Of a stretch of 64,000 nucleotides of DNA, positions 5,326 through 64,000 are shown piece after piece. The notes under the pieces are model-generated. The model saw only the letters and a list, made by a program, of their open reading frames with translations. It was not told the origin of the DNA and did no database searches. Made by a program: the position numbers and the translations under genes. Numbering within the stretch: position 1 is the stretch's first letter; each line of letters opens with the position of its first letter. Source of the DNA: Flectonema sp. DT1601 (lineage: Eukaryota); NCBI GenBank assembly GCA_964019425.1, contig OZ025788.1, positions 372,001 through 436,000 on the forward strand, in the 5' to 3' direction.

Positions 5326-5416
5326 GGCTTTGCTGAGAGGGGCATACGCCGTGAGAAGGACAGGCCTGTCCCCCTTACTTTCTTTGCTGCTGAAGAAGGG
5401 CTGGATGTGGTCCGAT
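5326..5416 (+). repeat. Decayed, internally deleted copy of family 1 repeat
   Basis: GGACAGGCCTGTCCCCCTTACTTTCTT...GCTGAAGAAGGGCTGG...TGGTCCGA matches 50326-50398. Confidence 0.8.
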
Positions 5417-6054
5417 TTGATTGTTTTTTTTTTCTTTTCCTTTGTGATAACTCCCCGCTAATAAAGCTAAAAAAAAAAAATACCACATCTGTGGTAAGTT
5501 CCAATTTCAAAACATGCCTCGCTTTTCTGGTACCTCTTTCTTGAATAGAAAAGAAAAACAAAACCAACGAGTGAACCGGAGTCAAGTTATTACATAATTT
5601 GACAGTTTTTTTTTTTTTGTTGAACTACCGCTCTTTTTTTTTTTTTGGGTAAGTTGAAATATTATTATGGTGAAGTAGGTCACGTTTATAACCAACAGCT
5701 GAAACTAATTTATACATACCACGTCCCGAGTCTTCGGAAATAGCTACGGATTTCCAAACCATTGACCGAACCATTAATTTATTAACAATATAAGTAATCG
5801 ACCCACTCTCTGATGTATTTCATTATGACTCCTGGTTTTGGTTTCTTCACAACTATTTAAGTAATTGAATAACTCTATATCGTCACCTGCACTGAATGGT
5901 AACACAGAAGAGATATCTCAAACCTAAGAGTGTTTGATGTCGTTTGTTGACTTCTACTTATAAACTAATACTGATAGTTTGAATACTGTTGAGCATGAAT
6001 GGAAACTTGTTTTTTATTATTCATCTCCCGTAGACATACCTCAGTACCACTTAT

Positions 6055-6220
6055 TAGTTGGTATCCCTCGTTCACTGATGGTAAAAGAAATAACCTTTGC
6101 TGAGGAGGGCTGGGTTAGGGGAATGGTCCGAAGAAAAACTTCTTAAGTTTATCCCATCAGTTGTTTGTTGTCCTGCGAATTTTTGATTTTAATAATTGAA
6201 ATGACTAATTAATATTAATA
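6055..6220 (+). repeat. Decayed copy of family 1 repeat
   Basis: GTATCCCTCGTTCACTGAT...GCTGAGGAGGGCTGGGTTAGGGGAATGGTCCGAAGAAAA...TTGTTGTCCTGCGAA matches 50220-50456. The AGCCCGAAAC strand is lost. Confidence 0.8.
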
Positions 6221-7432
6221 CTGACTTAATTGTTTGAAGCTGTTTAATTTTTTTTTTACCTACCCAATGTTGGTGTTATCCGTCTACTCATATTAAGCAT
6301 TACTCAACTAACTAATCCTCAAATGGGTATTGATGCAGATGAGAAATCCAAGTCAGATCACTCAAAAGGAGAAAAGCAATTTAGTTCTTACATTTCGGAA
6401 CTAAGACGACTTTTGATGTTCCTCAAATAATGAGAACACGGAAATCATATTTCCCCCCCCCCCCCCCCCTCTTTATTTCTTGTTCTCTTTTATAATCATT
6501 TGGTAGTATTGAGCGGTGAGTACTGTTTTCGTTTGTTGAGAGGTCGATTTTCTATCGATTTTTCACAATGTTTTAGTTAAATAGGAAATTCCCGTGAGAA
6601 TTCTCGATTAAGTTCTCAATTATGGGAAGCTAAGTGGTAAAATAACCTTCTAAAAAACCAATTAACCACAGAAGGGAACAAACAGCACTCTTGTGTTACT
6701 ACTTTCATACAAACTAACATACGTGTGGTTTTTAATTAAATAATTAATAACGTATATAAGTAATTTTGAAGACCAAAACCCTTTTTTTTTTTTTTTTTAA
6801 AATGACCTTTTCTTGCTTTGTTATTCGTTGCCTGTGTTGTCATATTGTTCAGTTTTTTTTTTATATTTATAACAGGTGGCGACTGCGAAAAAGCAAAAAC
6901 GTTTTGTGTGTGTTCGTAAAGGGTTTTTCTGATTTCCGACTAGCAGCGCCAAACCCTATGCAAGTGATTCTTTAACCCCATTATACTTCACCCCCTCAGA
7001 AATTACCGAACAAGATGAAAGGCTCAATTATATTTTTATTTACTGACTATGGTGCTGTTAGTGATTGACAAAAGAGAAAATGTGAACATCTGTTTTAATA
7101 TTTCCGATTAGCGAAAATAGGTGATGATATTGTTATTATACTGCACTTATACAGGACACTCGGAACAAGTGGAATTGCGTTTTTTTTAAGTTTATTTTCT
7201 GTTATATTAATAACAGCGTGAAGGGTTCACATTTAGTATACTTTAAGTAATGTTACGTCTGTTGGGAAATGGTAGTTGATTGATCTTTATAGGTATAATG
7301 TGATTGTCAATACCTTTCTTATTTATGTTTCATCACTGGATTTATCAAGATTTAAGAACGTGACGTCGATTATTTTTATGATTACTTTCTGTAATTCATA
7401 ACTCAATTCTTAAAGCAGTGGGGACAGCTGAA

Positions 7433-17500: not shown

Positions 17501-18360
17501 TACTCGGTGGTTAGTTGGACTCGTTAACTAGCTAATTAGATTCTGTGCGATGTCTTCTTCGTATGAGAATGAGAATCAGCGGTGACTCTGTGCTTTGATT
17601 GATTGAACTTTTCGATAACTCAAGTACTAGTTTTTCGCGGCGACAACAGGTTAGTTTTCCGTTTCGTATACGTGTGTTTTAGCTGATGGTTGTGCCAACT
17701 GAATTATTTCTTCTGAATTTTCTTTTTTACCCCCACTGACTACCAAATTGCACCACATTATGAATATCCTGTGTACAGCAAACTGCACTAAAGACGATGT
17801 CTTTTTCGATCGTTTGTTTTTTTTTATTTTTTTTATTTTTCCTCTCTCCGTTATTGTAATTAACACAGATATGTGCCGCTGAGGCTTCTCCCCCCTTTTT
17901 TAAAAAAAAATTTTTTTTTTACAGCGAAATTACGTAGAAAGTACTTTACTTTAACGAAGAACGTTAATAGCAAGAGAAAAAAAAAAAAAAAAAAAAGATT
18001 TTTATTGATTTGCGTGTCATTTGTTCTGATTGCTCACTTTCCTTTTTGTTATTTTATACTAAACGACAAGGACAGGTCTTCTCCAATCTTGTTTTGCACG
18101 TCCCTGGTGACACGAAGAAGAAGAGGTCTAATCCTCTCTGGTGTTTGTCCTTGAAGTTAGTATGAGTTTAATGACCAGTTTTGAGTGATCCTTAAATAAG
18201 GAAGAAAAAAAAAAAAAAAAAACAGGGAGATGCCTCATTTCTGTCTCCCTCTTTGTTGTAGAGAGGAGCAACAAGAATCGGAAATCTTATTTCGAGGTCA
18301 ATTTCGTACCTGAAAAATGAAAACTTTTGCAACCGATTGCGGTGCATGAATCAGATAACT

Positions 18361-18540
18361 TTTTGAGTATCTACCTAACCGATACTCGGTGGTCTGAAGG
18401 ACTTGCTAACTATTATTACTAACTATTACGTAACCTTTTAGCCCGAAACCAACCATTATTTGTTTGTTGTCCTACGAATTTTTAGCATTTAATTTTTTTG
18501 ATTGACTGATGATTATTACTAACTATTAGGTAACCTAACA
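18361..18540 (+). repeat. 110-bp-satellite-related module followed directly by the 3' half of family 1 repeat
   Basis: TATCTACCTAACCGATACTCGGTGG...GACTTGCTAACTA resembles the satellite unit. AGCCCGAAACCAACCATTATT...GTCCTACGAA follows at 18440-18478. Confidence 0.75.
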
Positions 18541-42412: not shown

Positions 42413-42920
42413 TCTTTGTTTCTCTTATGTATTCTTGTTTCTCTCAATTTTTGTTTCGGTTGAGCTCGTCCTTGAGATAAACGATCGTCAAACTTTGGCA
42501 TCTTCTTATAATCTCAAAAGAAATGAAAAAAAAAAAACTAATCAGTACCGATTGAAAATAATGTCACTTATGTGCATATTTTTTTTTTTTTTTTTCATTC
42601 TCGGAATTTATCGATAATTATAAAGAAAGTCGTTGGATTAAATAATTAAAATACGAACAACCCATCGAGGTATATTATCGTTTGTTTTTTTCTTTTTCTT
42701 TTTCTTTCTTAGATTGATTAAGAACAAAAAACGTCACTGAAGTCATCATTGACTTTTGGTTTTCTCTTTTTTCCAACAACGCTCTTCATCTTTCCTGCTA
42801 TGTTAGTTCCCTTGAGGAGGTGTTTTTTTTCTCGAAGCATTGTAAAAAAAATACTTCGATCAATTTACTCTCGCTTACGCTAAAAAAGTGATCCTCTCGG
42901 GGATCAGGTTCGACATAAAG

Positions 42921-43013
42921 TCGTAGTATTGGGGACTCGCAGGTGGTTAACCGTTCCACCCTGTTGTGTCTATCTAACCAGTACTCGATGGTATGTCGGG
43001 CTCGCTAACTAAC
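42921..43013 (+). repeat. Solo copy of the 110-bp satellite unit
   Basis: GTAGTATTGGGGACTCGCAGGTGGTTAACCG...GGGCTCGCTAACTAACT is nearly identical to the unit at 53208-53908. Confidence 0.95.
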
Positions 43014-43304
43014 TAATTTAAAAAAAAACAGTTTTTTTAGATATCCTCTTCGTCTTTTTTTTAAAAAAAAAAACAAAAAAAATCGTATTTCTTTCCTTTT
43101 TCCAAACTGAACGAAGACAGCTAAGCTTGCCTTTGTCGAGTTATTCTTTATCGACCAGTTTATTTTAAAATCTGCTGCTATCTTTTTTAGTCGTTGTTGA
43201 CAGCATATAACATCTCCATGATGCTTCGAATCAAACTTCTTTGATGGGAAGTACAAAAATGTTTGAGATGACTCGTGGCTGTCTGTTACGTGTCCTCTAC
43301 TCAC

Positions 43305-43490
43305 CATTAGCAACATATATTCCTGTTACAGAACTTGATAGAGAACTGTTTTTTTTGAAACAAAAATAATGGAAGTATAATCTCACTTCTTTTTACAGTA
43401 AATGAGAAATGTTTGGCTGTTGGCCGTCTAGGTTGCTATAGTAGTGTTGCTGAATGGAGCGTCGAATATGACACAACATGTGTTTCCAAA
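43305..43490 (+). pseudogene. Truncated duplicate of the upstream region and first codons of the SGNH esterase gene at 54682
   Basis: Matches 54586-54790, including ATGAGAAATGTTTGGCTG. It has a premature TAG, an internal deletion and then breaks off. Confidence 0.88.
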
Positions 43491-44027: not shown

Positions 44028-44287
44028 TGACTAACTGTACTGACTAACTGTACTGACTAACTGTACTGACTAACTGTACTGACTAACTGTACTGACTAAC
44101 TGTACTGACTAACTGTACTGACTAACTGTACTGACTAACTGTACTGACTAACTGTACTGACTAACTGTACTGACTAACTGTACTGACTAACTGTACTGAC
44201 TAACTGTACTGACTAACTGTACTGACTAACTGTACTGACTAACTGTACTGACTAACTGTACTGACTAACTGTACTGACTAACTGTAC
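44028..44287. repeat. Perfect minisatellite (TGACTAACTGTAC)x20
   Basis: 13-bp period over 260 bp, read directly. Confidence 0.98.
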
Positions 44288-45054
44288 TTGATAACTTGAA
44301 GAACTTGTTGATAACTTGAATACGAGGTTTTGTGCCGTCAGGTACGTACTGTTGCTGTGGCGAAGGTTATCCTGGCAAGGCGGTGGAGTTACAATCCTGC
44401 ACCCAGAAGATTGATTTTCCGATCATAAACAACAAGCCCTCCTTTGATTCACACCACATTCGTTCGGTCAGGGTAGGTCTTTGGGCCAATTAAGCGTCTG
44501 ACCAACGTTCCAGAGTGTCTGCCCCATATATCCCCTCTATCTCTTCCGTCCGGCTTCATCCCTGGAAGTCATTTTTGCATACAACGATTGATGCATCTTC
44601 GTTAGGGCCACTACATTACCAACGAGGTGCTTCAGTGGGTGCTTGTACAGCTGTTGCCAATGTAAGGGCAGTTAGTGCCACTGTAACACCCACCTCCATA
44701 AGAGACCTTAAACGATGTGCGGGTGGTTTGAGGCAATGATGTTGACAGTACAAGCCAGGTGGTCAAGAGACATGTGGTGCAAGAACGTCCAAAATAATCT
44801 GAGAAAAACTCTTTGTGAACTTGTCACGCGTCCCAAAGGTGTCCCCCATCAGAAGCAGGCATGTTTGTTTAGAATAAAATTGTGAGGAATTTAAAATTAC
44901 TCAACATATTTTTCAGGGGAAAAAAAAGTCTGCCTTAAATTCGGCAAGTTCGATTCCAGGTGGCGGATTTTTTAACCACAGGCCGCAAGGCACTTTTTTT
45001 GTATAGAGGTGGCGGTTTCGGAAACTTTTGTCTGGATTAGAGGTTTTCCCAAAA

Positions 45055-48000
45055 AAAATTAAAATAAAATAAAACTCACCATGATGCAGCATTTCATTCT
45101 TACTTTTGCTGGCAAGATATAACTACAGGGTATGAGGGGCTCAACCTACGTTGTCGTCGAATTGTCAGATTCAATAAAGATCCGACTCAGTTGTGATTTT
45201 ATTAAAGTTTGTTTGAAGTTAAGTTATTTAATTGTCAGAGAAACGAAAAATGATGGTGCCAATAGTGTTAGCAAACGTGGTTCTTGCTTCAAAGTCACTC
45301 TGATGACATATTTTGCTTATAATTTCTTTTTCTTCAGACGCTGGGGCAAATGTTGGTATTCTTTCTGTTGTTGGCACTCCATTTCTCAATGACTGTCGGT
45401 TGGTCGGGTTCTACAAGTGCAGGATCTACGTCTACAATTGATATTAATGTCCGCAGTCTTTCGATGAGAGTCCGACAAGTGTACTTCAAATTCAGTCCAA
45501 GTTCTGGAGCCTGCGCTTTAATTTCAAAAAAAAGCAAATTCGATGTCCGACTTAGTTCCTGTGGAAAGTTGACTGACGTCCACTCGGGGAACATCGATTA
45601 TACTGCGGGAACACAGTTTGCAGTTGACGCTAGATTGCGATGTACTTCATCAAGCAAATGGTACCTCGAATTTCGAAATAACAATACCAACTGTAAAACA
45701 AATTGGGAAATCAGACTACCATCGTGGGAGTGCGATTCTGCCGGTCCGAATAAAGCTAACGAGTGTCTTCTTCGTTATAGAACAATTCCTCATAAACAAA
45801 ATGGTCCTGTTGTTGTAGGAACGGTAGTGAAATCAACTATCGAAGTCCTTGATGATCCGTATTCATCAAATAACCTATTAGTAGGATTGTCTTCATCACT
45901 TTTGTTTAATTCTATAACACCTTTTCCGATTGCAATAACGTCAAAAGGGACGACAACATTGGAGTCAACAATAACAACATCAAGTGTTGGGATGACAGAC
46001 TTTTGTGTTGATGTTAATGGACCTGCATTATCACAATATTATAATTTGGGTACTGGGTGTAAACCAATTGAAGTTTACGGACTGACTAATGCACCGCCTA
46101 CGTTAGTTCCAACACTCATTCCTACTGACTTACCAACTATTGTTCCAACTGATGTCCCTCCAACTGCTGTACCGACGAACATACCGACAGCTGTACCGAC
46201 TTTAGTTCCTACTACTATTCCTACCACTATTCCTACGCTGATTCCGACAAGTATTCCGACGACAATCCCAAGAACAGCTCAGCCAACTTTGATTCCAACA
46301 TCAGTACCACTAACTCAGATACCGATTACATCAAAACCAGCTGTGCCGGATTCATTGGGTACGGGCGATGCTGGAGGAGGTGTTAGTTTTACTGCATCTG
46401 TTGGTTCTCTTGTAGCAGGTTCTGGAGCTGGTGGAGCTCTATCAAAAACAATGGTTATTGCTAATCAAATAAAATGTACTGATGGTGTCCCCTCAGACGG
46501 CCTTCCTTTTATAGTTCACCCTCTGATCTTCGCAATAAAGGGAAACTACTGGGCTGGTGCTGTGATTGGAAATATTTCGTTGTGTCTATTCTCGTATATA
46601 TTTTTATATTTATTCGTTTTTATTATGAAGCGAAGGAATCCAGACAAAGACATTACCCTGACCATGAGGTATCCTGGAGTCTTGATTCCAGCCTCATTAA
46701 TTCTGTACCCATCAATCCTGCAGTATTCTGGTCTGCTGTTGATATATTCACACACTGCAGTTATGAAGATCGTGGGGGTATCAGGAATTTCATTTTGTAT
46801 AATTTTTATGGCTTTGGTGATGACGATATTCAGATGTAATCATAACAAATGTGCATATCGACAACGTTCGGAGGAGCATTACACTCCATTCGTTGCCTAT
46901 GCTCTTGGATGTGGTGCTTGGGAAGCTGTTGATGAGGATGACTACTATGTAGAAAGAATGGGAACCGGTTTTGATATTTATTGTTATATAAAACACTTAC
47001 GAGGTCACTATATTGTTATTGAATATGGTCCAGTCCCACTCCTGGTAGGAGCGGCATGGATATCAACGAACAATGTGTGGTATTGTACTGTACGGATTTC
47101 TGTTTTATTTTTTGCAACGTTTGTTCAATTGATCTACGTATGGAAGTTTAGAGTTTACATTGCCCCCTTACTAACTCATCTACACGTTTTAACAAATTCT
47201 TTAATTAGTTCTGCATTATTATTAGAACTTGTTTCTATTCATGCGTATGGTGAAAGTGATAATTGGGCTGATTCAATAAGTACCAACTTAATGACTGCTA
47301 GTGTCAGTTTGGTTCTTTTACGATGTGCTTACGACTGTCTTCAATACGTTGTTGATATTGTATCTGGTTATAAGAGACTAATTATTCAAGAATCACACAA
47401 TGATTCTCCTCAATTTGAAAAAGAAAATGTTAGCTGTACATCAGCAAGTGATATGATGATGCCTTTAATGCCTTTATCTAATCGGCATTCTTCCGAAGCA
47501 AGTAGCCAACCGAATCTTGCGTTTGTTAATATGGAATACAACCTACTACACTGTAAGTTTGGTGACAGTGATAACGAAGGTTGTGAAGTTATTCCTTTTC
47601 ATAACATCCAACCAGTTGATGACATGCTTAGTGGATTCATTAAAACGTCTCTGTAGAAAATATATCGGTCTTTCTTTTTTTTTTCCACTAATTTTTTTCA
47701 ATCGAGGCGGCATTATAGTGCGCTGCATCACTCGGTTCATTTCTGTCTAAAATTCTGGGAGGTTGGAGAACATCGAACAAAAAGCTATTACAGAGTACGA
47801 GCATGTGTAGGTGAAATATACTACGTTCATGATCAGATCATCATCGCAGTTAGTGTTAGTGAAGGAGCTCTCAGACTCGAAGGAAGTGCTATCCTGTTCT
47901 TCAGATAAAGGCAAAATTATCTCCCGCGGGGAGGTTCTCTAGGAGCTGCAACAGTTTTCTAACGCAATTGCTAGCATGAGAAGAACTGGGTCAAAGGCAC

Positions 48001-48393
48001 ACTTGGGAAGGAGGAAAAAAGAAAGTTGAAAAGGAATAAACTATAAAACTGGGGCTGTTTTTTACTCAGATTATCTCGATCGTTCCATTCCAGGTCCGGG
48101 ATTAATATTTATCATTGAGTAGGAAATCCTGCAAGGAGAGGTTAATATCCCTTTAGTGTCACTAAATATGTGTAAAAGTGCATATACAATCGAACCCTCC
48201 CCGATTCCAAAAAAAAAAAATCATGATGTGTTTACTCCAGGTGGTGCGTTTTTTGGTCGCAAAAATAATTTTGACTGATGTATATTTATTTTTTTTCTTC
48301 TGATCAAATTTATCAAAAAAAAAAAAATAAAAAATAAAAAAATATTCCACTCTTTTATTGATAAAATAAATAAGTAAATAAATCTGTATAAGT
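45055..48393 (+). repeat. Segmental duplication copy 1 (copy 2 at ~60610 to beyond 64000)
   Basis: Near-identical flanks and CDS between the two locations. Confidence 0.97.
45350..47656 (+). CDS. Surface protein: signal peptide, Cys-containing ectodomain, PT-rich mucin-like stalk and multi-pass membrane domain (copy 1)
   Basis: 768-aa ORF with a hydrophobic N-terminus, PTxV/PTxI repeats and about 7 hydrophobic helices. Confidence 0.92.
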   Translation: MLVFFLLLALHFSMTVGWSGSTSAGSTSTIDINVRSLSMRVRQVYFKFSPSSGACALISKKSKFDVRLSSCGKLTDVHSGNIDYTAGTQFAVDARLRCTSSSKWYLEFRNNNTNCKTNWEIRLPSWECDSAGPNKANECLLRYRTIPHKQNGPVVVGTVVKSTIEVLDDPYSSNNLLVGLSSSLLFNSITPFPIAITSKGTTTLESTITTSSVGMTDFCVDVNGPALSQYYNLGTGCKPIEVYGLTNAPPTLVPTLIPTDLPTIVPTDVPPTAVPTNIPTAVPTLVPTTIPTTIPTLIPTSIPTTIPRTAQPTLIPTSVPLTQIPITSKPAVPDSLGTGDAGGGVSFTASVGSLVAGSGAGGALSKTMVIANQIKCTDGVPSDGLPFIVHPLIFAIKGNYWAGAVIGNISLCLFSYIFLYLFVFIMKRRNPDKDITLTMRYPGVLIPASLILYPSILQYSGLLLIYSHTAVMKIVGVSGISFCIIFMALVMTIFRCNHNKCAYRQRSEEHYTPFVAYALGCGAWEAVDEDDYYVERMGTGFDIYCYIKHLRGHYIVIEYGPVPLLVGAAWISTNNVWYCTVRISVLFFATFVQLIYVWKFRVYIAPLLTHLHVLTNSLISSALLLELVSIHAYGESDNWADSISTNLMTASVSLVLLRCAYDCLQYVVDIVSGYKRLIIQESHNDSPQFEKENVSCTSASDMMMPLMPLSNRHSSEASSQPNLAFVNMEYNLLHCKFGDSDNEGCEVIPFHNIQPVDDMLSGFIKTSL

Positions 48394-48731: not shown

Positions 48732-48895
48732 GTTGCCTGTGGGGCAGCAGCGTGCACCGAAGCCAAGGATGCAGGATGGACTCCTCGACCATATCGTAAA
48801 ATAAATTAATTAAAATTAAATTTAAACGACGGTTTTAGATGCAAAAGCAGATACGGATTTTCACTTGTGGGTCTTTTCTTTGCCTCTCGCTTCGC
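48732..48895 (+). repeat. Short duplicated segment (other copy 51067-51230)
   Basis: GTTGCCTGTGGGGCAGC...CTCCTCGACC and AAACGACGGTTTTAGATGC...GTGGGTCT occur at both sites. Confidence 0.9.
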
Positions 48896-49172: not shown

Positions 49173-49240
49173 GGAATGAGGTACCCAGAACTCACTGATG
49201 AAATCAAGGAGATAATTTAGAAAAAAATATGGAACAGCAG
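49173..49240 (+). repeat. Heavily deleted family 2 copy
   Basis: GGAATGAGGTACCCAGAACTCACTGATGAA followed by ATGGAACAGCAG, matching the head and tail of the 53985/56154 copies. Confidence 0.65.
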
Positions 49241-49416
49241 CATTATTTTCTTTTATTTTTGTTGCACCCGACACAAGTCAGTTAGCAGAGCTATTCGAAT
49301 AAACGATGCGTCTTTCTTGTCGAATGCTTTCGCAGAAGGTCGTCTTCCCACGATCTAAGAATTTCACCTCTGACGTCGACCAGTGTTGCTGTCATGTGAT
49401 CAACAGATCATAATAA

Positions 49417-49960: not shown

Positions 49961-50216
49961 ATAATTTTGACTGTTATGTTTTTTTTTCTCTTTTTCTGAT
50001 TAAATTTTATCAAAAAAAGAAAAAAAAAACAAACTTTTCTGATCAAATTGCAACTGTCCTACGAAAATTTTGCTTGCCGAAAGAAATGTCTTCGTACGTC
50101 TGGCGGTGCCATGAGACTCGGACACATCTATAGAATACCGTCTGAGCATGAGTGGAAACCTTTTTATTTTTTTATCATTCATTCTCCATAAACATAACTC
50201 AGCCCCACTAATTTTG

Positions 50217-50523
50217 TTAGTATCCCGCGTTCACTGATATTTACATATGGGGACTGTGTTAAATAGTAAAGGAAATAACCATGTTGACGTGGTCCCTTGG
50301 CTGAGAACGGAAAACGCGATGAGTAGGACAGGCCTGACACCGCAGTGTCCCCCCTTGCTTTCTTCGCTGAAGAGGGCTGGGTAAGGGGAATGGTCCGAAG
50401 AAAGATTTTTTAATTTTAGCCCGAAACCAACCATTATTGGTTTGTTGTCCTACGAACTTTTGCATTCGATTGAATTTTCCCGCCCTCTCCCCTTCTTTTG
50501 ACTGATAATTATTAATACTAACT
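50217..50523 (+). mobile_element. Family 1 dispersed structured repeat (retrozyme-like, ~300 bp), best-preserved copy A
   Basis: Near-identical to 57933-58207, with decayed copies at 4.0, 5.3, 6.1 and 18.4 kb. It is non-coding and contains a hammerhead core. Confidence 0.75.
50323..50453 (+). ncRNA. Non-circularly permuted hammerhead ribozyme, family 1
   Basis: CUGAAGA 50367-73, GUC 50393-95 and GAAA 50423-26. Stems I (8 bp), II (7 bp) and III (4 bp) all pair flush against the core. Confidence 0.8.
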
Positions 50524-50647
50524 TTTCTGATCAAATTTTATCAAAAAAAAAAAAAACAATATTCCTCTCTTTTATTGATGATCTGTATAAGTTCCTCTTA
50601 ATAAAATTTTTATTTTATATCTGCTTGATTGCGTTGAGACCAGGGAA

Positions 50648-50947
50648 TTGGTAAAGCAAACCATGAGATTTCCGACACCAGATGATGAGCTCTCTCTGGA
50701 TATGTTCTTTCGAACTGAATGGCAGCCTTTCACGTTGTTATTGATCAGCAAGCTTGATAATCATCTTAAAGAGTTATCTGACAATCCGTTGTTGTTGAAG
50801 TTTCAGGGTATTTTTATGAGGAGGAAACTAATCGCGCACATCGAAAGGAAAATAAGTTTCTCGTTACTGGGTTCTGATGTGAAGGAGCATGTTATAGAAC
50901 TTATTGATAATTCATATAAAGTTATCGATTTGACGAACTTTCTATAG
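50648..50947 (+). other. Short ORF of uncertain status (possible gene fragment)
   Basis: 99-codon ORF with protein-like composition and no recognisable motif. Confidence 0.25.
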
Positions 50948-52260
50948 CAGATGCGCTTATCAATCCTGACTGGTCGGAGCCCAAGCTTTCTAAGTTTCTT
51001 TCTCGGTTAAGTCGCCTCCTGTGACGAAATCCCCTAGGTAGATAAAGAACGTCTCTTTCCTCTAGTGTTGCCTGTGGGGCAGCAGCGTGCACCGAAGCCA
51101 AGGATGCAGGATGGACTCCTCGACCGGGTGTACATTTTCCCTTCGGAGCCTCCTATCGTAAAATAAAACGACGGTTTTAGATGCAAAAGCAGATACGGAT
51201 TTTCACTTGTGGGTCTATTCTTTACCTCACGAGCGAAGCTGGCAACCGTGGGTTGGCCGAACCTTTTTTAGTTTAACAGTTTTAAATTACTTTTTGTTAG
51301 ACTGCAATCAAATTCCCTCTCTTTTTATTTCATGAGAGTGAGATCCCCAGGGAGTTAGGAAAAAAAAGAAGAAAAAAAAAAAAAAAAGAAGGGATCTCAT
51401 TTATTATTGTTATTTGTTGGTTCGTTCGTTTTTTTTTTTTTTCCCCCGCACTGAAAATATCTAATTAGAGTTGTTACGTAAACGAAGCGGATTCAGAGGA
51501 TGAGAAGATTTTTTAGTGTGTATGTGTGTGTGTTTTTTTGCGCAAAAATAATCTCATTCATGAGCAGGTGTTCGACCGATTTTTTTCTTTTTTCTTTTGG
51601 TTTAAGTCTTCTGACTTTTTTGACTCAAGAAATCAACGAATTCGGAAAAACTGCAGGCTCCTTCGCTAATTGTTTCGTAGCTTCTTATTAGCATTTCTTC
51701 TTGTGCATCTTCCTCTCCTTATTTTTCTGCGGAACGTTTTTAGTTTTGTTTTCCTCCTCCTTTTTGTACAAGACCTCAGAGGAAGTATCAAATTACCTTT
51801 CCAAGGGGCTATAATGGCGAAATTAGTTCTTGTCATGCGTGCTTTTTGAATTTTTTGATCCGAGAGGAAACAAAAAAAAAAAAAAGTGAGCTTCAAGCTT
51901 CAATAGTAGGATATTTTTTATAAATAAAATAAACTTCTAGGAGGAGTTCTCTGATAAACTCTGTGAAGATATATTTTTTTATTCTTTTTTTTTGCAACCT
52001 CTCTATAACAAGAAGGAAAGAGTTCTTATCTTCACACTGATCAGTGATCATCCTACTGGATCCACGAATGACCCCACAGGAAACTATATTAACTAATACA
52101 ACTGTTGCAGTAACAACAAACGGCAATGGTGGTAAATGATGGGAAAAACGACCTCCACGAGCAGTTCTTAAAAGTGAACTTGAGAAGGTCGATATGGTAG
52201 GGTGTTTTTATGACTAAAAGTAAACTTCTAAAAGGAGTTCTATGATAAACTTTGTGAGAT

Positions 52261-52368: not shown

Positions 52369-53207
52369 TAAAATGGTGCAGCAAGGCAATTACTGGGCAA
52401 AGTTAGAACTGGTGGACGCAACTTTTGGCATCCAAACTGATTCTTGGCTTTTTATTTTAATTCGATGGACAAAAAAAAGAAGACGCGTCCGGAATTGAGC
52501 CTGGTCTGGAGCACGGTACCGTACCGTTCGACCATCCCTGCTCTGAAACACATCCCAACCACTGGGGATCTCGATGCGTTCCGTGTAAAGTTTGGGGGGC
52601 CCCTCTAACCATTTTGAATTTTGTAATAACGCCCCATTTTGGAACTATTTATGTAGCAAAGGTTAGTTTGTCCATATTTCTTTTTTTGCAACCTTTGTAA
52701 GAATAAAAAGAAAAAAAAACGTTGCTGTGATTTTTATCTTGAGCGGATTCGCAATGACTCACAATGTCCTTTCTTTTTGTTTTTTCTTGTTCTTTTTCCT
52801 CCCTTATTTTTAACGACGTTTATTATAAATAACGTTTTTCTTTATTTTTTGTATAAACTTTATATTGTGACTCACATCACCCTGGTTGCGAAATGCATTG
52901 ATATTCCGGATGAGCGCAATTTCCTGCCATCCGTTCATCACTGCTTTTTCTGATGCCAATCTCAATGCGTGTCATAATATACACAAGCGAACTTTGAGTG
53001 TCATCTTTTTTAATTTTCTTAAAGAGATGTCTCAGAGATTCCTGTGAGATACATACATAGAGAATATGAATTCATTATTGTTACGTGAATCATAATATTA
53101 TAGAAGATTTTTGTACCAATTAATAAATAAATATTCGGATTGAATTCCAACTGAAAAATAAAAGTTTGCGGGTTTGCGGTGTGTCATATTACGAAGTATT
53201 GAGAATT

Positions 53208-53908
53208 CACAGGTGGTTAACCGTTCCACCCTGTCGTGTCTATCTAACCAGTACTCGATGGTATGTCGGGCTCGCTAACTAACTCAGGGATTACATAATG
53301 TTGTAGTATTGGGGACTCACAGGTGGTTAACCGTTCCACCCTATCGTGTCTATCTAACCAGTACTCGATGGTATGTCGGGCTCGCTAACTAACTCAGGGA
53401 TTACATAATGTTGTAGTATTGGGGACTCACAGGTGGTTAACCGTTCCACCCTATCGTGTCTATCTAACCAGTACTCGATGGTATGTCGGGCTCGCTAACT
53501 AACTCAGGGATTACATAATGTTGTAGTATTGGGGACTCACAGGTGGTTAACCGTTCCACCCTATCGTGTCTATCTAACCAGTACTCGATGGTATGTCGGG
53601 CTCGCTAACTAACTCAGGGATTACATAATGTTGTAGTATTGGGGACTCACAGGTGGTTAACCGTTCCACCCTATCGTGTCTATCTAACCAGTACTCGATG
53701 GTATGTCGGGCTCGCTAACTAACTCAGGGATTACATAATGTTGTAGTATTGGGGACTCACAGGTGGTTAACCGTTCCACCCTATCGTGTCTATCTAACCA
53801 GTACTCGATGGTATGTCGGGCTCGCTAACTAACTCAGGGATTACATAATGTTGTAGTATTGGGGACTCACAGGTGGTTAACCGTTCCACCCTGTCGTGTC
53901 TATCTAAC
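53208..53908. repeat. 110-bp tandem satellite, ~6.4 copies
   Basis: AGGTGGTTAA recurs at 53211, 53321, 53431, 53541, 53651, 53761 and 53871. Units are almost identical and have no variable spacers. Confidence 0.98.
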
Positions 53909-53983
53909 GAATAGCTCCGATGGACATTAAGAAATCAGTTCTTTTGAAATGGACCAATTGATAAATCCGATTTATTAATAAAC

Positions 53984-54067
53984 TGGAATGAAGTCCCTTA
54001 GAACTTACTGATGAATGCCTAAGAGGGACAAGTAGTATAAGATTAAGGCTCCTGAAACTACATATTC
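53984..54067 (+). ncRNA. Non-circularly permuted hammerhead ribozyme, family 2 (core intact)
   Basis: CUGAUGA 54008-14, GUA 54035-37 and GAAA 54054-57. Stem I is CUUA/UAAG, stem III is ACUAC/GUAGU, and stem II is bulged. Confidence 0.72.
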
Positions 54068-54681
54068 TATCACCCTTTGATGTTAGGAAACTGCAGAAAT
54101 GAATACTTTTCTTTTACTGATCTCTACTTCTTATTAAATAAAATAATAAATAAAAAATATTCTCGCTTTTCTATACCAAATTTAATGATACTAACTAACA
54201 TTCTATTTTCATAATTACGTCTCTACTACTTGTTCCTTTGTTGGTTCTAGTTACGGTGAGAGTAGCGTACAAGTGAAGATATTGCTAATGTAGTTTAGTA
54301 ATCTTTCGCCCAATGTTATTAGTTAGTTCTTTTTCTGCTAGTAGTACATATTCTTATTGGTACAGTTTCCAATGGAAAACAATCCCGAATGTAGCGACCG
54401 GTATTCTTAACTCTGTCAACAGAAAACATGAATTAATAAATTCTGACCTTCTTGGTTTGATTTCTTTTGTGTTTCGGTCATAGTTACTGGTGTCGTCTGC
54501 GATTCCTCTTCGAACACTTCTACGGGGTACAGCGTCTGCACCATTTCCGTCAGGAACACCCGCCGTTGACGTCGCACGTGACGCTTATTAGCAGCATATA
54601 TTGTTGCAGAACTTGATGGAGAACTGTTTTTTTTTTGGAACAAAAATAATGGAAGTATAATCTCACTTCTTTTTACAGTAA

Positions 54682-55752: not shown

Positions 55753-56150
55753 GAGGACGTAATTCAACCAAGTGGTTAGTGAATTAAGAATCTTATTGAC
55801 TTTATGTCACTTTTCATAAGTCATCTAACTAATTGATAACTCGTGTGCTATGATGTATTATGACCTTGGTAACTTTCTTTTTTTTTGTGTGTGATTTGCT
55901 ACCGACGCGTTTGGCACGATGCTTCTTATTAGATATTCTTTTTTAATAAATTATTTATGATTTTCTAGATTATAATATCGTCAAAAAAAGAAAAAAAAAA
56001 AAATAAAAAAAAAAATAAAAAAATAAAAAGGAAAACCTAGTTAGTTAGCCAATCAAAAGTAAATATATGTTAGCCAGTTCTGACGAGTTTCGATGGACAT
56101 TAAATCAGTTCTTTTGAAATTGACATTGGTTAATCTGATTTATCAAAAAA

Positions 56151-56263
56151 ACTGGAGTGAAGTCCCAGGAACTTACTGATGAAGGCCTACGAGGGACAAG
56201 TAGTATAAGATTAAGGCTCCTGGAACTATGTATTCCGGTGTTTTATGGAACAGCAGAACAATT
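56151..56263 (+). ncRNA. Family 2 permuted hammerhead copy with GGAA instead of GAAA (probably inactive)
   Basis: CUGAUGA 56176-82 and the same helices as 53984-54067. Outer stem is ACUGGAGUG/UAUUCCGGU. Confidence 0.65.
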
Positions 56264-57895
56264 GTATTTTTATTCTCACTAATAGCTGGAAAGTGGGGAC
56301 CACAACCGTACTCTTTGGAGGTTTATCGGATCCCTGTTCATATTGCAATGAGTAGCATTGTTAATTGGATGGATGGAAAAGGTTACCAACTTAGAGTTGT
56401 GAAAATGTGTTAAGGATATGTAATCCTACGCCAGTCAAACGTCGTTTTATTTTATTAATTTTTCATCATTATCATCTTCTGGGATCAGTCTGCTTGCATC
56501 CCTTCTCCGTAGCAAACAAACTGGATCCTTCTCTGAACTCCTTTATCTCCTTATTCTCCTCATGAAATAAACACTTGAGGCAGAGTCTTCGGACCAATGC
56601 GGTCACTGCCGCTCTGGACAGCCCGTCGTTTCCCTAACGATGGTAGGAATGTGCTTCGTACGCTTAAGAGTGCGTGACTATTTCATGCTCTTCTGACGTC
56701 CTTAACCATGTTTCTCGTATTCCTTGTCAGGCTTCAACCAAAAGTGAAAAAAGAAAGGCAAACATTGAAGTGAAAACAACAATGAACAAAGAAGGCGGTT
56801 GCACCCATGAGTGCAACCAGAAAAAACAAAAAAAAATAAAAAAGAACCAAAAATTTCGAATCTCTGGTTTTTCTGGTATGACCTGAATTATGACCACTGT
56901 TTTGGTGGAATTAGAGATTTTCCTAAAAGAGAAAAAAAACTCTTTCAATCATTTACAAGGCGCTTCAGGAACAACTATAATCTTCAACCTTTAGAAATCA
57001 ATATTTTGTTTTAGCAGTGTGCTCCGAGCTACGAACTAACAAATACAAGCTTCGTTTTTTAAAAGAAATACGATAACCGACGACAAAAAAAAAAAAAACA
57101 GAAATTTAAATCAGTAGTGACGAACTGCAAGGCGTAAAGCTCTCAACTTGTAGAACGTAACCATCAGATTCGACAGTGATTTCTGGATACTTGTACTAAC
57201 ATTATTTTAGTTATGTACGAGTGTAATACATTGTCTGACTTTTCAGCGACTATCCTACAATGAAGCTTAATCTTCCTTTTTTTTCCAGTATAACCTTATT
57301 ACTCATGTAGTATTAAAAGGTTTATTACTGTTTCTACATTGTCAAACTATCACCCACGCTCAACCTGCCCCCCAAATTACCACAATTGACAACGTCTTCT
57401 GTTCAATAAGACGGAAAAAAAAAAAAAAAAAAAAAAAAAAACCCTTTTCTTTTTTCTAAACGTAATTATTTTTTGATTAACAGCTACGAATATTTTTTTT
57501 TAGTCAAGTACTTGATATTAATTTTGTTTTTAGTACCTAAAGCTGTTACTGTTTTTTACATTGTCAAAGTCTCATCCCCCAGATTCTTTCGTATTCGTAT
57601 TAAATCCCAGATGCAGCAGGGCATGGGATGCTCAACCTGTAGTGCGTGGTCCCCGGGTCAATTTGACTTGACAGCATTTCTTTCTGTGGTAGTTTATTTG
57701 AAGCATGCGATCTGGACAGAATCCAGTAATGATAATTCATGTCCAATCTGTTGCGTGTTAACCTTAATTTATTCATCCAAGTCCCCTAGGGGGATTTTGA
57801 TACGATACGAAAAGATCCTTGTAGATCCTTGCGTATCGTATTAAGTCCCCCCCTTCTTGCGTATGTTTCGTTCACAATATCTGATTTAACCCGAC

Positions 57896-58209
57896 AACTA
57901 ACTAACTAATACTAACTCTGGTCACTACCAAGGGGGACTGTGTTAAATGGTAAAATAAATAACCATGTTGACGTGGTCCCTTGGCTGAGAAGGGAAAACG
58001 CGATGAGTAGGACAGGCCTGACACCGCAGTGTCTCCCTTGCTTTCTTCGCTGAAGAGGGCTGGGTAAGGGGAATGGTCCGAAGAAAGATTTTTTAATTTT
58101 AGCCCGAAACCAACCATTATTGGTTTGTTGTCCTACGAACTTTTGCATTCGATTGAATTTTCCCACCCTCTCCCCTTCTTTTGACTGATAACCATTAATA
58201 GTAACTAAC
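57896..58209 (+). mobile_element. Family 1 dispersed structured repeat, copy B, flanked by TAAC-rich tracts
   Basis: Near-identical to 50249-50523. AACTAACTAACTAATACTAACT lies upstream and GTAACTAAC downstream. Confidence 0.75.
58007..58136 (+). ncRNA. Non-circularly permuted hammerhead ribozyme, family 1 copy B
   Basis: CUGAAGA 58050-56, GUC 58076-78 and AGCCC-GAAAC 58101-10, with a 9-bp stem I CUUUCUUCG/CGAAGAAAG. Confidence 0.8.
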
Positions 58210-60898
58210 AATCGACTTAACTTACTGATTGTTTTAACGGCTTCTTCTATGTTGAGTTCTATGCTGCTTTTCCTATACAGCCCAGGGGACAGTTATATAT
58301 CAAAAGAGACAAATAGGGAGGCTCCACTTCGGAGACTGAGAGTCGTGACTGTACAGGTATAAGTACACTTTATCCCACTCCCCTTCAATAGTAGTTGGTT
58401 ATAGGTTTTCAGTGGCCATCGCGGCGATAGGATGGATCCAAATCAGAGCGAACCAATTTTGGATGGTCTCCGGGCAGATGGGTGAGCTCGTCCTTCCCAG
58501 GTTGAGTAGTCTAGGATGTACCGACGTAGTCGGAGAAGAAACTTTTCAGATTGCTAATCAGAATGGTTTTTTTTATTTATGTGCAAAGACCTGCCGTATT
58601 CAGATCCTTTCGTCTCGTATTAAATTTCTCCGTTCTTCAACCCGTACTAACATTTCCTTTGGTCGTATCAACTGACGTTTATTTACTTAACTCTCTAGAT
58701 ATTTATTTATTCTTCTTCCATTAAATATATGCCAGCATCTCAATCCCTCATTCTTCATTGAATGTGGTGCCTCGGAATCCCAGGCCCGTAGGCCCTTTGA
58801 TTTAAGAGCTAAAATGTAAGGTCTTACAAGATCAATGCAGAACAACTTACTTATCACTCGCAGCCAAATCTTGCGAAATGTGCTGTGTTAGGAACCAGAA
58901 ATTTCATTTTCATTGTGTATTTTAATTGTTTTTGCGGAAATAATTTTCCTTTAATATCAACTTGAAGTTAAGCTGTAAAGGGCTACAGGGCATAGGGCGC
59001 TCAACCTGTATGCTGTACCGTGGCCCACTGGTTTGGCAGAACACTATATTCGTTTTATCCAGTTTCAACTTGCTTTATATTTTATTATTGTATCAAGTTA
59101 CTCCACATAAACTGTCGATCATATCGTAGTCTGCATGGACTAAACTAAGCATCAGAGTTCAATTTCAAATAATTAAAGAAACAACATAAAAAAAAAAGAA
59201 GAAATAGTGCTACTCTGGAGCTGAAACTTCTTTTGTGATTACTGCAACCTGCGTTTTTATTCTAAGATTGTTCAGCAACGTGAAGAATTTGATCTCACAA
59301 AACCTTTTTTTTTGACTAACATAAAAAAAGAATCAGCAATCTCACTAAATAATTCAGTGGTTTTGGTTTCCCAGGACTCACAACTATTTAATTAATTGAA
59401 TAACTCGATTCCGTACTGCACTGAATGTGCAGCTAAGTTAGAAACATTTAATTTTATGTAAACCTCTCGTACTAACATTACCTTTAATCACTGTATTATA
59501 ACTAATGTTTGTTTTAATTAACTTTGGTACAATACAGATATTTATTTGTTCGTAACATTTCGACCCACAAAATTACTATCCAAAAGACCCAAACCCGGTA
59601 CTGGGGAACCCCTAACTGCCCACCGGTTTCAAAGTTCCCATTTTTTAAGAATGTTGGCAGCACACGTAAACCTCCTTTAACTTTATCAGTTTAAGTCGGT
59701 TCACGGTTTTGTGCACAAACAAAACATCGCAGGGTTATATTACTGTTTTCTGTATAGTTTAAGATAAAGCCAATTCTTTTTTACTTTACCTTTTAAGCTG
59801 TGTACAACTGTGGTAACAATTATGTTTGTAAGTTTTATTTTTTTATGAAGGTCCGGATTTCCTGTGACTTATGCGAATGTCAGACTTTGCCAAAGTGTCG
59901 GTCACAGTCGGACTTGCTGTGAGAAAAGGTCAACCGAGCTGATTAACTTATTCTTCAGAAGGGCACTGATTACAAGTTGTGTTCTCAAATTGCCTGCCGG
60001 CATCAGCCAAAAGTGAATCTTCTTGTCCTTCTCATGCACCGGTAGAACTTCTTCACAACTAGATACGTCACTACAGCGTCCTGGTTGATGTGTGAGGAGG
60101 AAGCCGATATGGCTTCGTTGAGCCTCAGTTCCAAGGTGCTTAAGTAGTTGACATCCAAGTAGACTGTATCCCTCTTGTTGATAAAAGAGAGAATTTGACC
60201 CTTCTAACATCAGTAGAAGCTTCCTCTCTTTGTAATCCAGAGTCATAATTATATAGTCACTAGGATTGGATGTATGTTCTCGATACACCTGACACTGCTC
60301 TTGCCTTCTCCATGTGAATGTATCTCGGTGATTACTTTGATATGCTTCTCAGCTTCAGGCTTTACGCATGTTGGAAAGCTGTCCGCTGGTGTAGAAGGCT
60401 CCAGAGACCCCAGCTTTCCAGATGGAAACATGTGAAGACTTAGGCGGGCAAGCTTATTTCAGAGATTCTTTCCGACGAGACGGTAGTTACACACATCTGT
60501 ACGATGTTGTAGCTGCTGAAACTCTACTCCACGTAGTGAATCGGTTTTTTTTTTTAAACGTTTTTCAAAAAAAAAAATGACTGATATAACAATAATAAAA
60601 AAAAAAAAAAAATTAAAATAAAACTCACCATGATGCAGCATTTCATTCTTACTTTTGCTGGCAAGATATAACTACAGGGTATGAGGGGCTCAACCTACGT
60701 TGTCGTCGAATTGTCAGATTCAATAAAGATCCGACTCAGTTGTGATTTTATTAAAGTTTGTTTGAAGTTAAGTTATTTAATTGTCAGAGAAACGAAAAAT
60801 GATGGTGCCAATAGTGTTAGCAAACGTGGTTCTTGCTTCAAAGTCACTCTGATGACATATTTTGCTTATAATTTCTTTTTCTTCAGACGCTGGGGCAA

Positions 60899-63253
60899 AT
60901 GTTGGTATTCTTTCTGTTGTTGGCACTCCATTTCTCAATGACTGTCGGTTGGTCGGGTTCTACAAGTGCAGGATCTACGTCTAAAATTGATATTAATGTC
61001 CGCAGTCTTTCGATGAGAGTCCGACAAGTGTACTTCAAATTCAGTCCAAGTTCTGGAGCCTGCGCTTTAATTTCAAAAAAAAGCAAATTCTCTGTCCGAC
61101 TTAGTTCCTGTGGAAAGTCCGCTAATGTTCACTCAGGGAACATCGATTATACTGCGGGAACACAGTTTGCAGTTGACGCTAGATTGCGATGTACTTCATC
61201 AAGCGAATGGTACCTCGAATTTCGAAATGACAATACCAACTGTAAAACAAATTGGGAAATCAGACTACCATCGTGGGAGTGCGATTCTGCCGGTCCGAAT
61301 AAAGCTAACGAGTGTCTTCTTCGTTATAGAACAATTCCTCATAAACAAAATGGTCCTGTTGTTGTAGGAACGGTAGTGAAATCAACTATCGAAGTCCTTG
61401 ATGATCCGTATTCATCAAATAACCTATTAGTAGGATTGTCTTCATCACTTTTGTTTAATTCTATAACACCTTTTCCGATTGCAATAACGTCAAAAGGGAC
61501 GACAGCATTGGAGTCAACAATAACAACATCAAGTGTTGGGATGACAGACTTTTGTGTTGATGTTAATGGACCTGCATTATCACAATATTATAATTTGGGT
61601 ACTGGGTGTAAACCAATTGAAGTCTACGGACTGACTAATGCACCGCCTACGTTAGTTCCAACACTCATTCCTACTGACTTACCAACTATTGTTCCAACTG
61701 ATGTCCCTCCAACTGCTGTACCGACGAACATACCGACAGCTGTTCCGACGAACATACCGACAGCTGTACCGACGAACATACCGACAGCTGTACCGACTTT
61801 AGTTCCTACTACTATTCCTACCACTATTCCTACGCTGATTCCGACAAGTATTCCGACGACAATCCCAAGAACAGCTCAGCCAACTTTGATTCCAACATCA
61901 GTACCACTAACTCAGATACCGATTACATCAAAACCAGCTGTGCCGGATTCATTGGGTACGGGCGATGCTGGAGGAGGTGTTAGTTTTACTGCATCTGTTG
62001 GTTCTCTTGTAGCAGGTTCTGGAGCTGGTGGAGCTCTATCAAAAACAATGGTTATTGCTAATCAAATAAAGTGTACTGATGGTGTCCCCTCAGACGGCCT
62101 TCCTTTTATAGTTCATCCTCTGATCTTCGCAATAAAGGGAAACTACTGGGCTGGTGCTGTGATTGGAAATATTTCGTTGTGTCTATTCTCGTATATATTT
62201 TTATATTTATTCGTTTTTATTATGAAGCGAAGGAATCCAGACAAAGACATTACCCTGACCATGAGGTATCCTGGAGTCTTGATTCCGGCCTCATTAATTC
62301 TGTACCCATCAATCCTGCAGTATTCTGGTCTGCTGTTGATATATTCACACACTGCAGTTATGAAGATCGTGGGGGTATCAGGAATTTCATTTTGTATAAT
62401 TTTTATGGCTTTGGTGATGACGATATTCAGATGTAATCATAACAAATGTGCATATCGACAACGTTCGGAGGAGCATTACGCTCCATTCGTTGCCTATGCT
62501 CTTGGATGTGGTGCTTGGGAAGCTGTTGATGAGGATGACTACTATGTAGAAAGAATGGGAACCGGTTTCGATATTTATTGTTATATAAAACACTTACGAG
62601 GTCACTATATTGTTATTGAATATGGTCCAGTCCCACTCCTGGTAGGAGCGGCATGGATATCAACGAACAATGTGTGGTATTGTACTGTACGGATTTCTGT
62701 TTTATTTTTTGCAACGTTTGTTCAATTGATCTACGTATGGAAGTTTAGAGTTTACATTGCCCCCTTACTAACTCATCTACACGTTTTAACAAATTCTTTA
62801 ATTAGTTCTGCATTATTATTAGAACTTGTTTCTATTCATGCGTATGGTGAAAGTGATAATTGGGCTGATTCAATAAGTACCAACTTAATGACTGCTAGTG
62901 TCAGTTTGGTTCTTTTACGATGTGCTTACGACTGTCTTCAATACGTTGTTGATATTGTATCTGGTTATAAGAGACTAATTATTCAAGAATCACACAATGA
63001 TTCTCCTCAATTTGAAAAAGAAAATGTTAGCTGTACATCAGCAAGTGATATGATGATGCCTTTAATGCCTTTATCTAATCGGCATTCTTCCGAAGCAAGT
63101 AGCCAACCGAATCTTGCGTTTGTTAATATGGAATACAACCTACTACACTGTAAGTTTGGTGACAGTGATAACGAAGGTTGTGAAGTTATTCCTTTTCATA
63201 ACATCCAACCAGTTGATGACATGCCTGGTGGATTCATTAAAGCGTCCCTGTAG
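60899..63253 (+). CDS. PT-rich multi-pass surface protein (copy 2)
   Basis: 784-aa paralogue of 45350-47656 with two extra PTNIPTAV units. Confidence 0.92.
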   Translation: MLVFFLLLALHFSMTVGWSGSTSAGSTSKIDINVRSLSMRVRQVYFKFSPSSGACALISKKSKFSVRLSSCGKSANVHSGNIDYTAGTQFAVDARLRCTSSSEWYLEFRNDNTNCKTNWEIRLPSWECDSAGPNKANECLLRYRTIPHKQNGPVVVGTVVKSTIEVLDDPYSSNNLLVGLSSSLLFNSITPFPIAITSKGTTALESTITTSSVGMTDFCVDVNGPALSQYYNLGTGCKPIEVYGLTNAPPTLVPTLIPTDLPTIVPTDVPPTAVPTNIPTAVPTNIPTAVPTNIPTAVPTLVPTTIPTTIPTLIPTSIPTTIPRTAQPTLIPTSVPLTQIPITSKPAVPDSLGTGDAGGGVSFTASVGSLVAGSGAGGALSKTMVIANQIKCTDGVPSDGLPFIVHPLIFAIKGNYWAGAVIGNISLCLFSYIFLYLFVFIMKRRNPDKDITLTMRYPGVLIPASLILYPSILQYSGLLLIYSHTAVMKIVGVSGISFCIIFMALVMTIFRCNHNKCAYRQRSEEHYAPFVAYALGCGAWEAVDEDDYYVERMGTGFDIYCYIKHLRGHYIVIEYGPVPLLVGAAWISTNNVWYCTVRISVLFFATFVQLIYVWKFRVYIAPLLTHLHVLTNSLISSALLLELVSIHAYGESDNWADSISTNLMTASVSLVLLRCAYDCLQYVVDIVSGYKRLIIQESHNDSPQFEKENVSCTSASDMMMPLMPLSNRHSSEASSQPNLAFVNMEYNLLHCKFGDSDNEGCEVIPFHNIQPVDDMPGGFIKASL

Positions 63254-64000
63254 AAAATGTATCGGTCTACTTTTTTTTTTGCGACTAAATTTCCACTAAT
63301 TTTTTTCAATCGAGGCGGCATTATAATGTGCCGCATCACTCGGTTCATTTCTGTCTAAAATTCTGGGAGGTTGGAGAACATCGAACAAAAAGCTATTACA
63401 GAGTACGAGCATGTGTAGGTGAAATATACTACGTTCATGATCAGATCATCATCGCAGTTAGTGTTAGTGAAGGAGCTCTCAGACTCGAAGGAAGTGCTAT
63501 CCTGTTCTTCAGATAAAGGCAAAATTATCTCCCGCGGGGAGGTTCTCTAGGAGCTGCAACAGTTTTCTAACGCAATTGCTAGCATGAGAAGAACTGGGTC
63601 AAAGGCACACTTGGGAAGGAGGAAAAAAGAAAGTTGAAAAGGAATAAACTATAAAACTGGGGCTGTTTTTTACTCAGATTATCTCGATCGTTCCATTCCA
63701 GGTCCGGGATTAATATTTATCATTGAGTAGGAAATCCTGCAAGGAGAGGTTAATATCCCTTTAGTGTCACTAAATATGTGTAAATTGCATCCCTATGCTT
63801 ATTTTGAACAACCGAACCCTCCCCGATTCCAAAAAAGAAATCATGATGTGTTTACTCCAGGTGGTGCGTTTTTTTGGTCACAAAAATAATTTTGACTGAT
63901 GTATATTTATTTTTTTTCTTCTGATCAAATTTTATCAAAAAAAAATAAAAAAATATTCCCCTCTTTTATTGATAAAATAAATAAATAAATCTGTATAAGT

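Follow-up and report, generated by a model that had tools for sequence, protein, structure and literature searches.

The segment at 53984-54069 raises two questions: whether its interleaved helices constitute a new kind of hammerhead ribozyme, as a first-pass annotation had proposed, and what sort of genetic element carries it. We addressed both within the window, by which we mean the whole 64,000-nucleotide stretch of DNA analyzed here and in whose numbering all positions are given. Every strand named in the annotation is present at its position, and the pairings assigned to those strands hold (Table 1), with stems I and III adjoining the core through four and five Watson-Crick pairs, respectively. 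The conserved core bases (CUGAnGA, GAAA, and UH) are complete in this copy, hereafter the 54 kb copy, and broken in the related copies at 56 kb and 4.9 kb, which together belong to a repeat that we call family 2. The core blocks C, S, and G follow one another in that order (54008, 54032-41, and 54046-61). A descriptor compared with shuffled sequence, an alignment of family 2 with a second repeat (family 1), and the pairing itself support the hammerhead reading and, with it, the cut predicted by analogy after A54037. Core positions follow the established hammerhead numbering, and hammerhead cleavage leaves a 5'-OH and a cyclic phosphate.

Table 1 Ribozyme elements of the 54 kb copy, and repeat copies and adjoining array in the window.
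Feature	Position	Strand	Remarks
Outer closing helix	53984-53990 / 54063-54069	+	7 pairs, 2 of them G-U
I/II helix	53993-53998 / 54024-54029	+	6 Watson-Crick pairs
Stem I	54004-54007 / 54038-54041	+	4 Watson-Crick pairs; first strand 5' of core (block C), second 3' of cut
Core CUGAUGA (C3-A9)	54008-54014	+	intact
Stem II	54015-54020 / 54046-54053	+	block G; 3' strand 2 nt longer
Stem III	54032-54036 / 54057-54061	+	5 Watson-Crick pairs including U16.1-A15.1
Block S: one strand of stem III plus the GUA triplet	54032-54037	+	A54037 = H17; predicted cut 3' of A54037
Core GAAA (G12-A15.1)	54054-54057	+	intact; then stem III 3' strand to 54061
Family-2 copy bearing the ribozyme (54 kb)	53918-54110 (3' end approximate)	+	86% over 151 nt to 56091-56235
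Family-2 copy (56 kb)	56091-56276	+	best stem II; GGAA for GAAA; rival rod fold dominates
Family-2 copy (4.9 kb)	4941-5065	+	G5 missing from the core (CUAAAGA); pairing of stems II and III disrupted
Family-2 relic (49 kb)	49173-49260	+	block C and 3' flank only; weak match, E 0.037 / 0.56
Probable family-2 relic	4133-4185	+	ribozyme interior deleted; 16-nt exact match to 4.9 kb tail; flanks by eye
Family-1 copy (50 kb)	50133-50523	+	CSG intact; core 50367, predicted cut after C50395
Family-1 copy (58 kb)	57933-58206	+	CSG intact; core 58050; 96% to 50 kb copy over 275 nt
Family-1 copy	5981-6227	+	block G deleted
Family-1 relic, 5' part	5328-5418	+	similarity ends just past predicted cut site
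Family-1 relic, 3' part only	18436-18523	+	25-nt direct repeat, one mismatch (18412-36, 18512-36)
Family-1 relic, 3' part only	4040-4137	+	sequence similarity
Tandem array of 110-nt unit	53195-53908	+	6.5 copies; runs straight into 54 kb copy

The annotation had singled out stem II as weak, and correctly so: A54015 pairs with U54053, a U.C mismatch follows within a 1x3 loop, and only then do four pairs form (54017-20/54046-49). U54016 is left unpaired, and the other two near-complete family-2 copies carry G at the equivalent site. The stem II of the 56 kb copy, AGGCCU, does pair better, as had been claimed, with six pairs and a 2-nt bulge, but the same copy has lost the GAAA of the core; the stem II of family 1 comprises eight pairs, three of them G-U. 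Because of the mismatch in stem II, cleavage of the 54 kb copy is doubtful; by our rough estimate, this copy may cleave measurably but would more probably fail to, and the majority form of family 2 would quite likely cleave measurably.

In fold computations on the 54 kb copy, the I/II helix has a pair probability of 0.84-0.95 and stem III one of 0.86-0.91, and the outer closing helix falls to 0.2-0.3 once the flanks are lengthened. Stem I is weak as a lone duplex (-0.8 kcal/mol). The preferred fold is the nested I/II helix with stem III, in which the strands of stems I and II are left in two loops.

The arrangement of these helices has a published counterpart. Eckert et al. 2023 defined blocks C, S, and G and named the order CSG (PMC10085705), and the CSG motif described there shares with the 54 kb feature all four helices, their order, and the 2-nt linker ahead of stem III, so the proposal of a distinct structural class is not borne out. 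Likewise, the helix that the first-pass annotation had described as an extra pseudoknot is present but not extra, being the published I/II helix of CSG. Judged from its sequence, the 54 kb feature is a type-CSG, non-circularly permuted hammerhead fold, and thus an already published topology, to which, as far as the predicted pairing goes, it adds no more than an outer closing helix and a bulge in stem II. The published examples, CSG-1 and CSG-2, are a pair of unique sequences separated by eight differences, both from the DNA of soil metagenomes and of unknown host; they cleaved at the predicted site at 0.004 and 0.026 per min, and the ribozyme was inactivated by changing G5, the base lost from the 4.9 kb copy (PMC10085705). 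Its authors called the evidence for CSG weaker, given that it came from two similar sequences of unknown host, and placed none of their supported motifs in the genome of a known organism (PMC10085705).

The 54 kb ribozyme shares with CSG-1 and CSG-2 the order C-S-G, a 5' helix that joins stems I and II and closes immediately past the 5' strand of stem II, a 5-bp stem III (one pair of which differs) preceded by a 2-nt linker, a spacing of 16 nt from the cut to GAAA, and a length of 69 nt as compared with 66. The published sequences have 6-bp stems I and II, a GUC site, and a G-C closing pair, whereas here stem I has 4 bp, stem II is bulged, the site is GUA, the closing pair is A-U, and an outer helix is present; in addition, the sequences described here are multi-copy repeats in a eukaryotic nuclear genome and are accompanied by a second, unrelated family. 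The 4-bp stem I, the 1x3 loop beside the core, and the A-U closing pair, for which the published descriptors require G-C, weigh against the reading, and neither family satisfies either of two RNAMotif CSG descriptors from that source (CUGAUGAG or CUGAUGAUG, and CGAAA). Type-SGC hammerheads (HRIMA-1 and its variants; 583 sequences, validated by compensatory mutants) resemble the present fold in being non-circularly permuted with an I/II helix but have another block order, with the cut site first, and come from metatranscriptomes, where they lie beside hairpin ribozymes (PMC10085705). In the open-access literature we found no report of further CSG examples or of diplonemid hammerheads. What is new is the setting, namely a likely diplonemid nuclear genome with two CSG families unrelated in sequence.

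The comparison with shuffled sequence that the annotation had suggested gave three matches of the full descriptor in the window (50367, 54008, and 58050) versus two in 1500 block-wise dinucleotide shuffles, or 0.0013 per shuffled window, with descriptor thresholds that were fixed after the candidate had been seen; the loosest version of the descriptor gave 0.17 matches per shuffle. When the six block orders were searched on both strands at equal thresholds, CSG alone matched in the window, and the CGS, GSC, and SCG orders, the circular permutations of classical types I, II, and III with their pseudoknot-free three-way junction, had no match there. Rfam yielded no match at gathering score anywhere in the window and no ribozyme match near the 54 kb feature at E values up to 10; a further Rfam search returned weak matches only, in A-rich sequence.

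A second family that shares the topology and is unrelated in sequence, as had been proposed, is supported by pairing tests and by alignment. In a MAFFT alignment computed with no structure input, the three core blocks of families 1 and 2 fall in register, and 91.7% of the cells of this joint alignment, a comparison that the annotation had also suggested, pair, as compared with 36-40% after the partners are slid. The helices of family 1 are for the most part longer (9 bp in stem I, 8 bp in stem II, 4 bp in stem III, and 8 bp in the I/II helix), and its scaffold (50323-50453) is richer than that of family 2, with an 8-bp outer helix and two small hairpins. The shared outer stem of the first-pass annotation thus stands as to topology, but in family 1 the outer helix is split from the core by these two extra hairpins. 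The claim of whole-structure covariation holds in part: 5 of the 12 core pairs changed on both sides between the families (three of four in stem I and one of five in stem III), but the comparison rests in effect on two independent sequences, and the count was equalled in 149 of 500 shuffles. Within family 2, no pair changed on both sides and the changes are one-sided or disruptive, so these copies give no sign of selection. In family 1, a downstream ACCAUU can displace the partner of stem III (-4.1 versus -3.3 kcal/mol), an alternative pairing that might possibly act as an off-switch, as modeled from these energies.

The ribozymes lie in repeats that are dispersed through the window, non-coding, truncated, and decayed in both families, which is the pattern of non-autonomous retroposons. 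Each of the three near-complete family-2 copies is damaged at a different place (stem II at 54 kb, GAAA at 56 kb, and CUGAUGA at 4.9 kb); they score 101-118 bits against the family-2 model, values that are high by construction. Of the six family-1 copies, two are intact; the other four are partial and count as damaged. Three of the family-1 relics break near the predicted cut: those at 4040 and 18436 begin about 13-19 nt after it, and that at 5328-5418 ends just after it. All hammerhead repeat loci of the window are intergenic; the 56 kb copy lies 424 nt past a stop codon, and the 54 kb copy lies 674 nt ahead of the next ATG. All 46 probe matches, which come from ten hammerhead loci and from the 110-nt units, fall on the + strand, which is that of the long open reading frames; the hammerhead loci are clustered, hence this count does not represent ten independent events, and we regard the strand bias of these loci as suggestive.

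Several copies are flanked by direct repeats. In family 1, these are exact over 17 nt at 18.4 kb and over 18 nt at 50 kb (null 0.2%), the latter detected only with a wider flank. Direct repeats of 8-10 nt flank four further spans (null 0.2-2.7%), two of whose boundaries were set after the repeats had been seen; those of family 2 measure 9 nt at the 54 kb copy, where the boundary was chosen in the same way, and 8 nt at the 49 kb relic. The copies at 56 kb, 4.9 kb, and 5.4 kb have no flanking direct repeat of at least 8 nt. Most of the flanking repeats overlap ACTAAC. We considered this motif as a strand-specific branch-point signal, a role that is unsupported by its distribution in the window, which has no strand bias (23 versus 18).

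The genome that carries the repeats is likely that of a diplonemid, as judged by protein similarity: a glyoxalase encoded in the window shows 76% identity with a Flectonema protein, 62% with that of Diplonema ambulator, and 57% with that of D. papillatum, and a second frame also has a relative in D. papillatum. In D. papillatum, genes are grouped in one-strand clusters, probably with co-transcription and trans-splicing, amid many dispersed repeats (PMC10161547). At 50621-51042 (+), homology identified the 5'-truncated tail of a non-LTR retrotransposon, 87% identical to P0011, a protein of 1349 aa with endonuclease, reverse transcriptase, and RNase H that belongs to a 25-member cluster; a reverse transcriptase therefore exists in this lineage. 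The hammerhead repeats share no common end or similarity with this tail, which is the window's sole LINE 3' end. We rejected the tail as a part of the 50 kb repeat and treat it as a mere neighbor, the 58 kb twin being without it. The sequence that follows the tail recurs at 48732-48889. The frame adjoining the 58 kb copy has no homologue that we could find.

The reading that we favor, with moderate confidence, is that the 54 kb feature is a CSG hammerhead with an intact core and a predicted cut after A54037, residing in a short, dispersed, decaying repeat, likely a non-autonomous retroposon, in the genome of a likely diplonemid. The repeat would be transcribed by read-through of the gene cluster. 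In its RNA, the I/II helix and stem III would form first, as two nested hairpins beneath the outer helix, and the two hairpin loops would then pair through stems I and II to yield an ordinary hammerhead core. By analogy with trypanosomatid retroposons, cleavage would release the repeat RNA from a long polycistronic precursor, and the cut ends, 5'-OH and cyclic phosphate, could permit its joining into a circle. Since the copies hold sequence on both sides of the cut, the template would have been a rejoined, tandem, or uncut RNA and not a plain cleaved monomer. New copies would be made by a reverse transcriptase acting in trans, in many cases at ACTAAC-like sites.

Release of this kind has parallels. 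Ribozymes free retroposon RNA from long transcripts in trypanosomatids (PMC4035085), and hammerhead SINEs are thought to be released by ribozyme cleavage (PMC6765202). The trypanosomatid elements L1Tc/ingi, NARTc/RIME, and SIDER, with the Pr77 HDV-like ribozyme, are likewise short and intergenic in one-strand euglenozoan gene clusters, and their copies are mostly sense and often degenerate (PMC4035085, PMC2689281); Pr77, as described there, has an HDV-like fold at the extreme 5' end and cuts upstream of itself, whereas here a hammerhead lies inside the repeat. Hammerhead SINE-like repeats, retrozymes, and the terminal repeats of Penelope-like elements likewise carry a hammerhead in a non-coding repeat mobilized in trans (PMC6765202, PMC4209133, bioRxiv 10.64898/2026.07.22.740005). 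In those accounts their hammerheads are circularly permuted forms (type I), often in tandem; here, by contrast, no tandem hammerhead was seen in the window and no Penelope protein in the 150 intergenic frames searched.

Of the alternatives, the one that survives best, although we consider it quite improbable, is that the repeats are fossils of small circular RNAs, retrozyme- or viroid-like, whose multimers are cut by the hammerhead and whose DNA copies are occasional reverse-transcribed insertions. Such a circular template would give copies that extend across the cut, as observed, and might explain both the piece of a family-1 3' strand at about 50055, just upstream of the 50 kb copy, and the perfect tandem array of 110-nt units that adjoins the 54 kb copy; type-SGC hammerheads do come from circular-RNA-like metatranscriptome contigs, but the published CSG examples were found only as DNA (PMC10085705), and the window has neither a tandem array that contains a hammerhead nor an antisense ribozyme of any block order.

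Ranked next, and also improbable, is the view that each repeat is the solo terminal repeat of a Penelope-like element, from a clade in which the permuted hammerhead replaces the canonical form. The terminal repeats of Penelope-like elements do contain hammerheads, and in some of these helix II is bulged (PMC4209133); among such elements, Naiad and Chlamys are described as being without canonical hammerheads, some holding core motifs (PMC8557442). The main text of PMC8557442 makes no mention of Diplonema, Euglen-, Discoba, or excavat-, and our Pfam search found no reverse transcriptase or endonuclease/GIY-YIG match, and hence no Penelope protein, in 150 of the 256 intergenic frames of the window or in three regions read through stops. 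The relic at 59883-60539 (-) has no Pfam match; it is a frameshifted remnant of a multi-copy gene family (P0024, 59% over 129 aa) with a relative in D. papillatum. We take this relic to be a candidate transposase-like gene by its motifs.

Less probable again is a domesticated role in RNA processing, in which the ribozymes would cut the polycistronic precursor or destabilize neighboring mRNAs, comparable to SIDER2 in Leishmania. Every copy is sense and intergenic, the distances of the 56 kb and 54 kb copies from the nearest stop codon and start codon would suit such a role, and Leishmania SIDERs are about 4-fold enriched in sense orientation (PMC2689281); the damage in all near-complete family-2 copies and in most family-1 copies, which at 56 kb has reached the core, nevertheless speaks for decay and not for conservation. 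That the match arose by chance, or is a non-functional resemblance in a sequence that never adopted the hammerhead fold, would agree with the short stems, a folding z-score of -0.43 from a method blind to pseudoknots, and the lack of an Rfam match, but is very improbable in light of the two descriptor matches in 1500 shuffles, the failure of pairing at 99 of 100 outside loci with the same core pattern, the one that passes being in an open reading frame, and the second, unrelated family that keeps the same order with longer stems.

These 100 outside loci (7 viral, 55 metagenome, and 38 genome) were collected with a core pattern common to family 2 and published CSG. The single locus to pass the pairing test, L098:480-548, is on the coding strand of a 103-aa open reading frame of an Acidobacteriaceae genome, and we treated it as chance; its stem I includes two G-U pairs, and its site is GUU. 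The family-2 model matched none of the 100 loci at E values up to 0.1. Published CSG-1 and CSG-2 were not recovered by the pattern scans, which thus ran without a positive control and constitute weak evidence of absence. The family-1 pattern had 0 viral matches, and BLAST against phages gave chance matches only.

Two unrelated families in one eukaryotic genome provide the independent variation that CSG had been missing, and the repeats supply its first apparent biological and eukaryotic setting, that of a likely mobile element. Both families also show why standard searches overlook such ribozymes, and the window supplies natural constructs, including the intact family-1 pair, whose 8-9 bp stems are suited to structure work. 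A broader conjecture, which we offer tentatively and regard as somewhat unlikely, is that diplonemids hold an undescribed group of short retroposons with a knotted CSG ribozyme and an outer helix, of which at least two unrelated families are carried on the polycistronic transcript, self-excise, circularize, and insert at ACTAAC-like targets. Were it true, a eukaryotic mobile element would have CSG as its standard, selected ribozyme, and this order would cease to be a mere rarity of metagenomes.

The surroundings of the repeats have further structure. The 110-nt unit occurs elsewhere in the window at 42913-43014, 18361-18412, and 17479-17530, as one single copy and two diverged relatives. It keeps a hairpin of 3 bp and an 8-nt loop; in the variants at 42.9 kb and 17.4 kb, the strand after this hairpin pairs with sequence upstream, and the terminal sequence of the unit is GYUAACUA. 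We take this arrangement to resemble P3/L3/P1 of HDV-like ribozymes. An HDV-like fold was ruled out for the unit by eye, the P2 helix being absent, and an Rfam search with it had no match. At 52699-52787, there is a weak C/D snoRNA-like match (snoZ162, E 0.077, under the gathering score). At 44028-44288, a 13-nt unit containing ACTAAC is repeated 20 times in perfect tandem, and 43306-43471 duplicates the start of the gene at 54682. A 3.4-kb duplication (96%) comprising 45051-48393 and 60600-64000 carries a 768/784-aa gene with a PT repeat.
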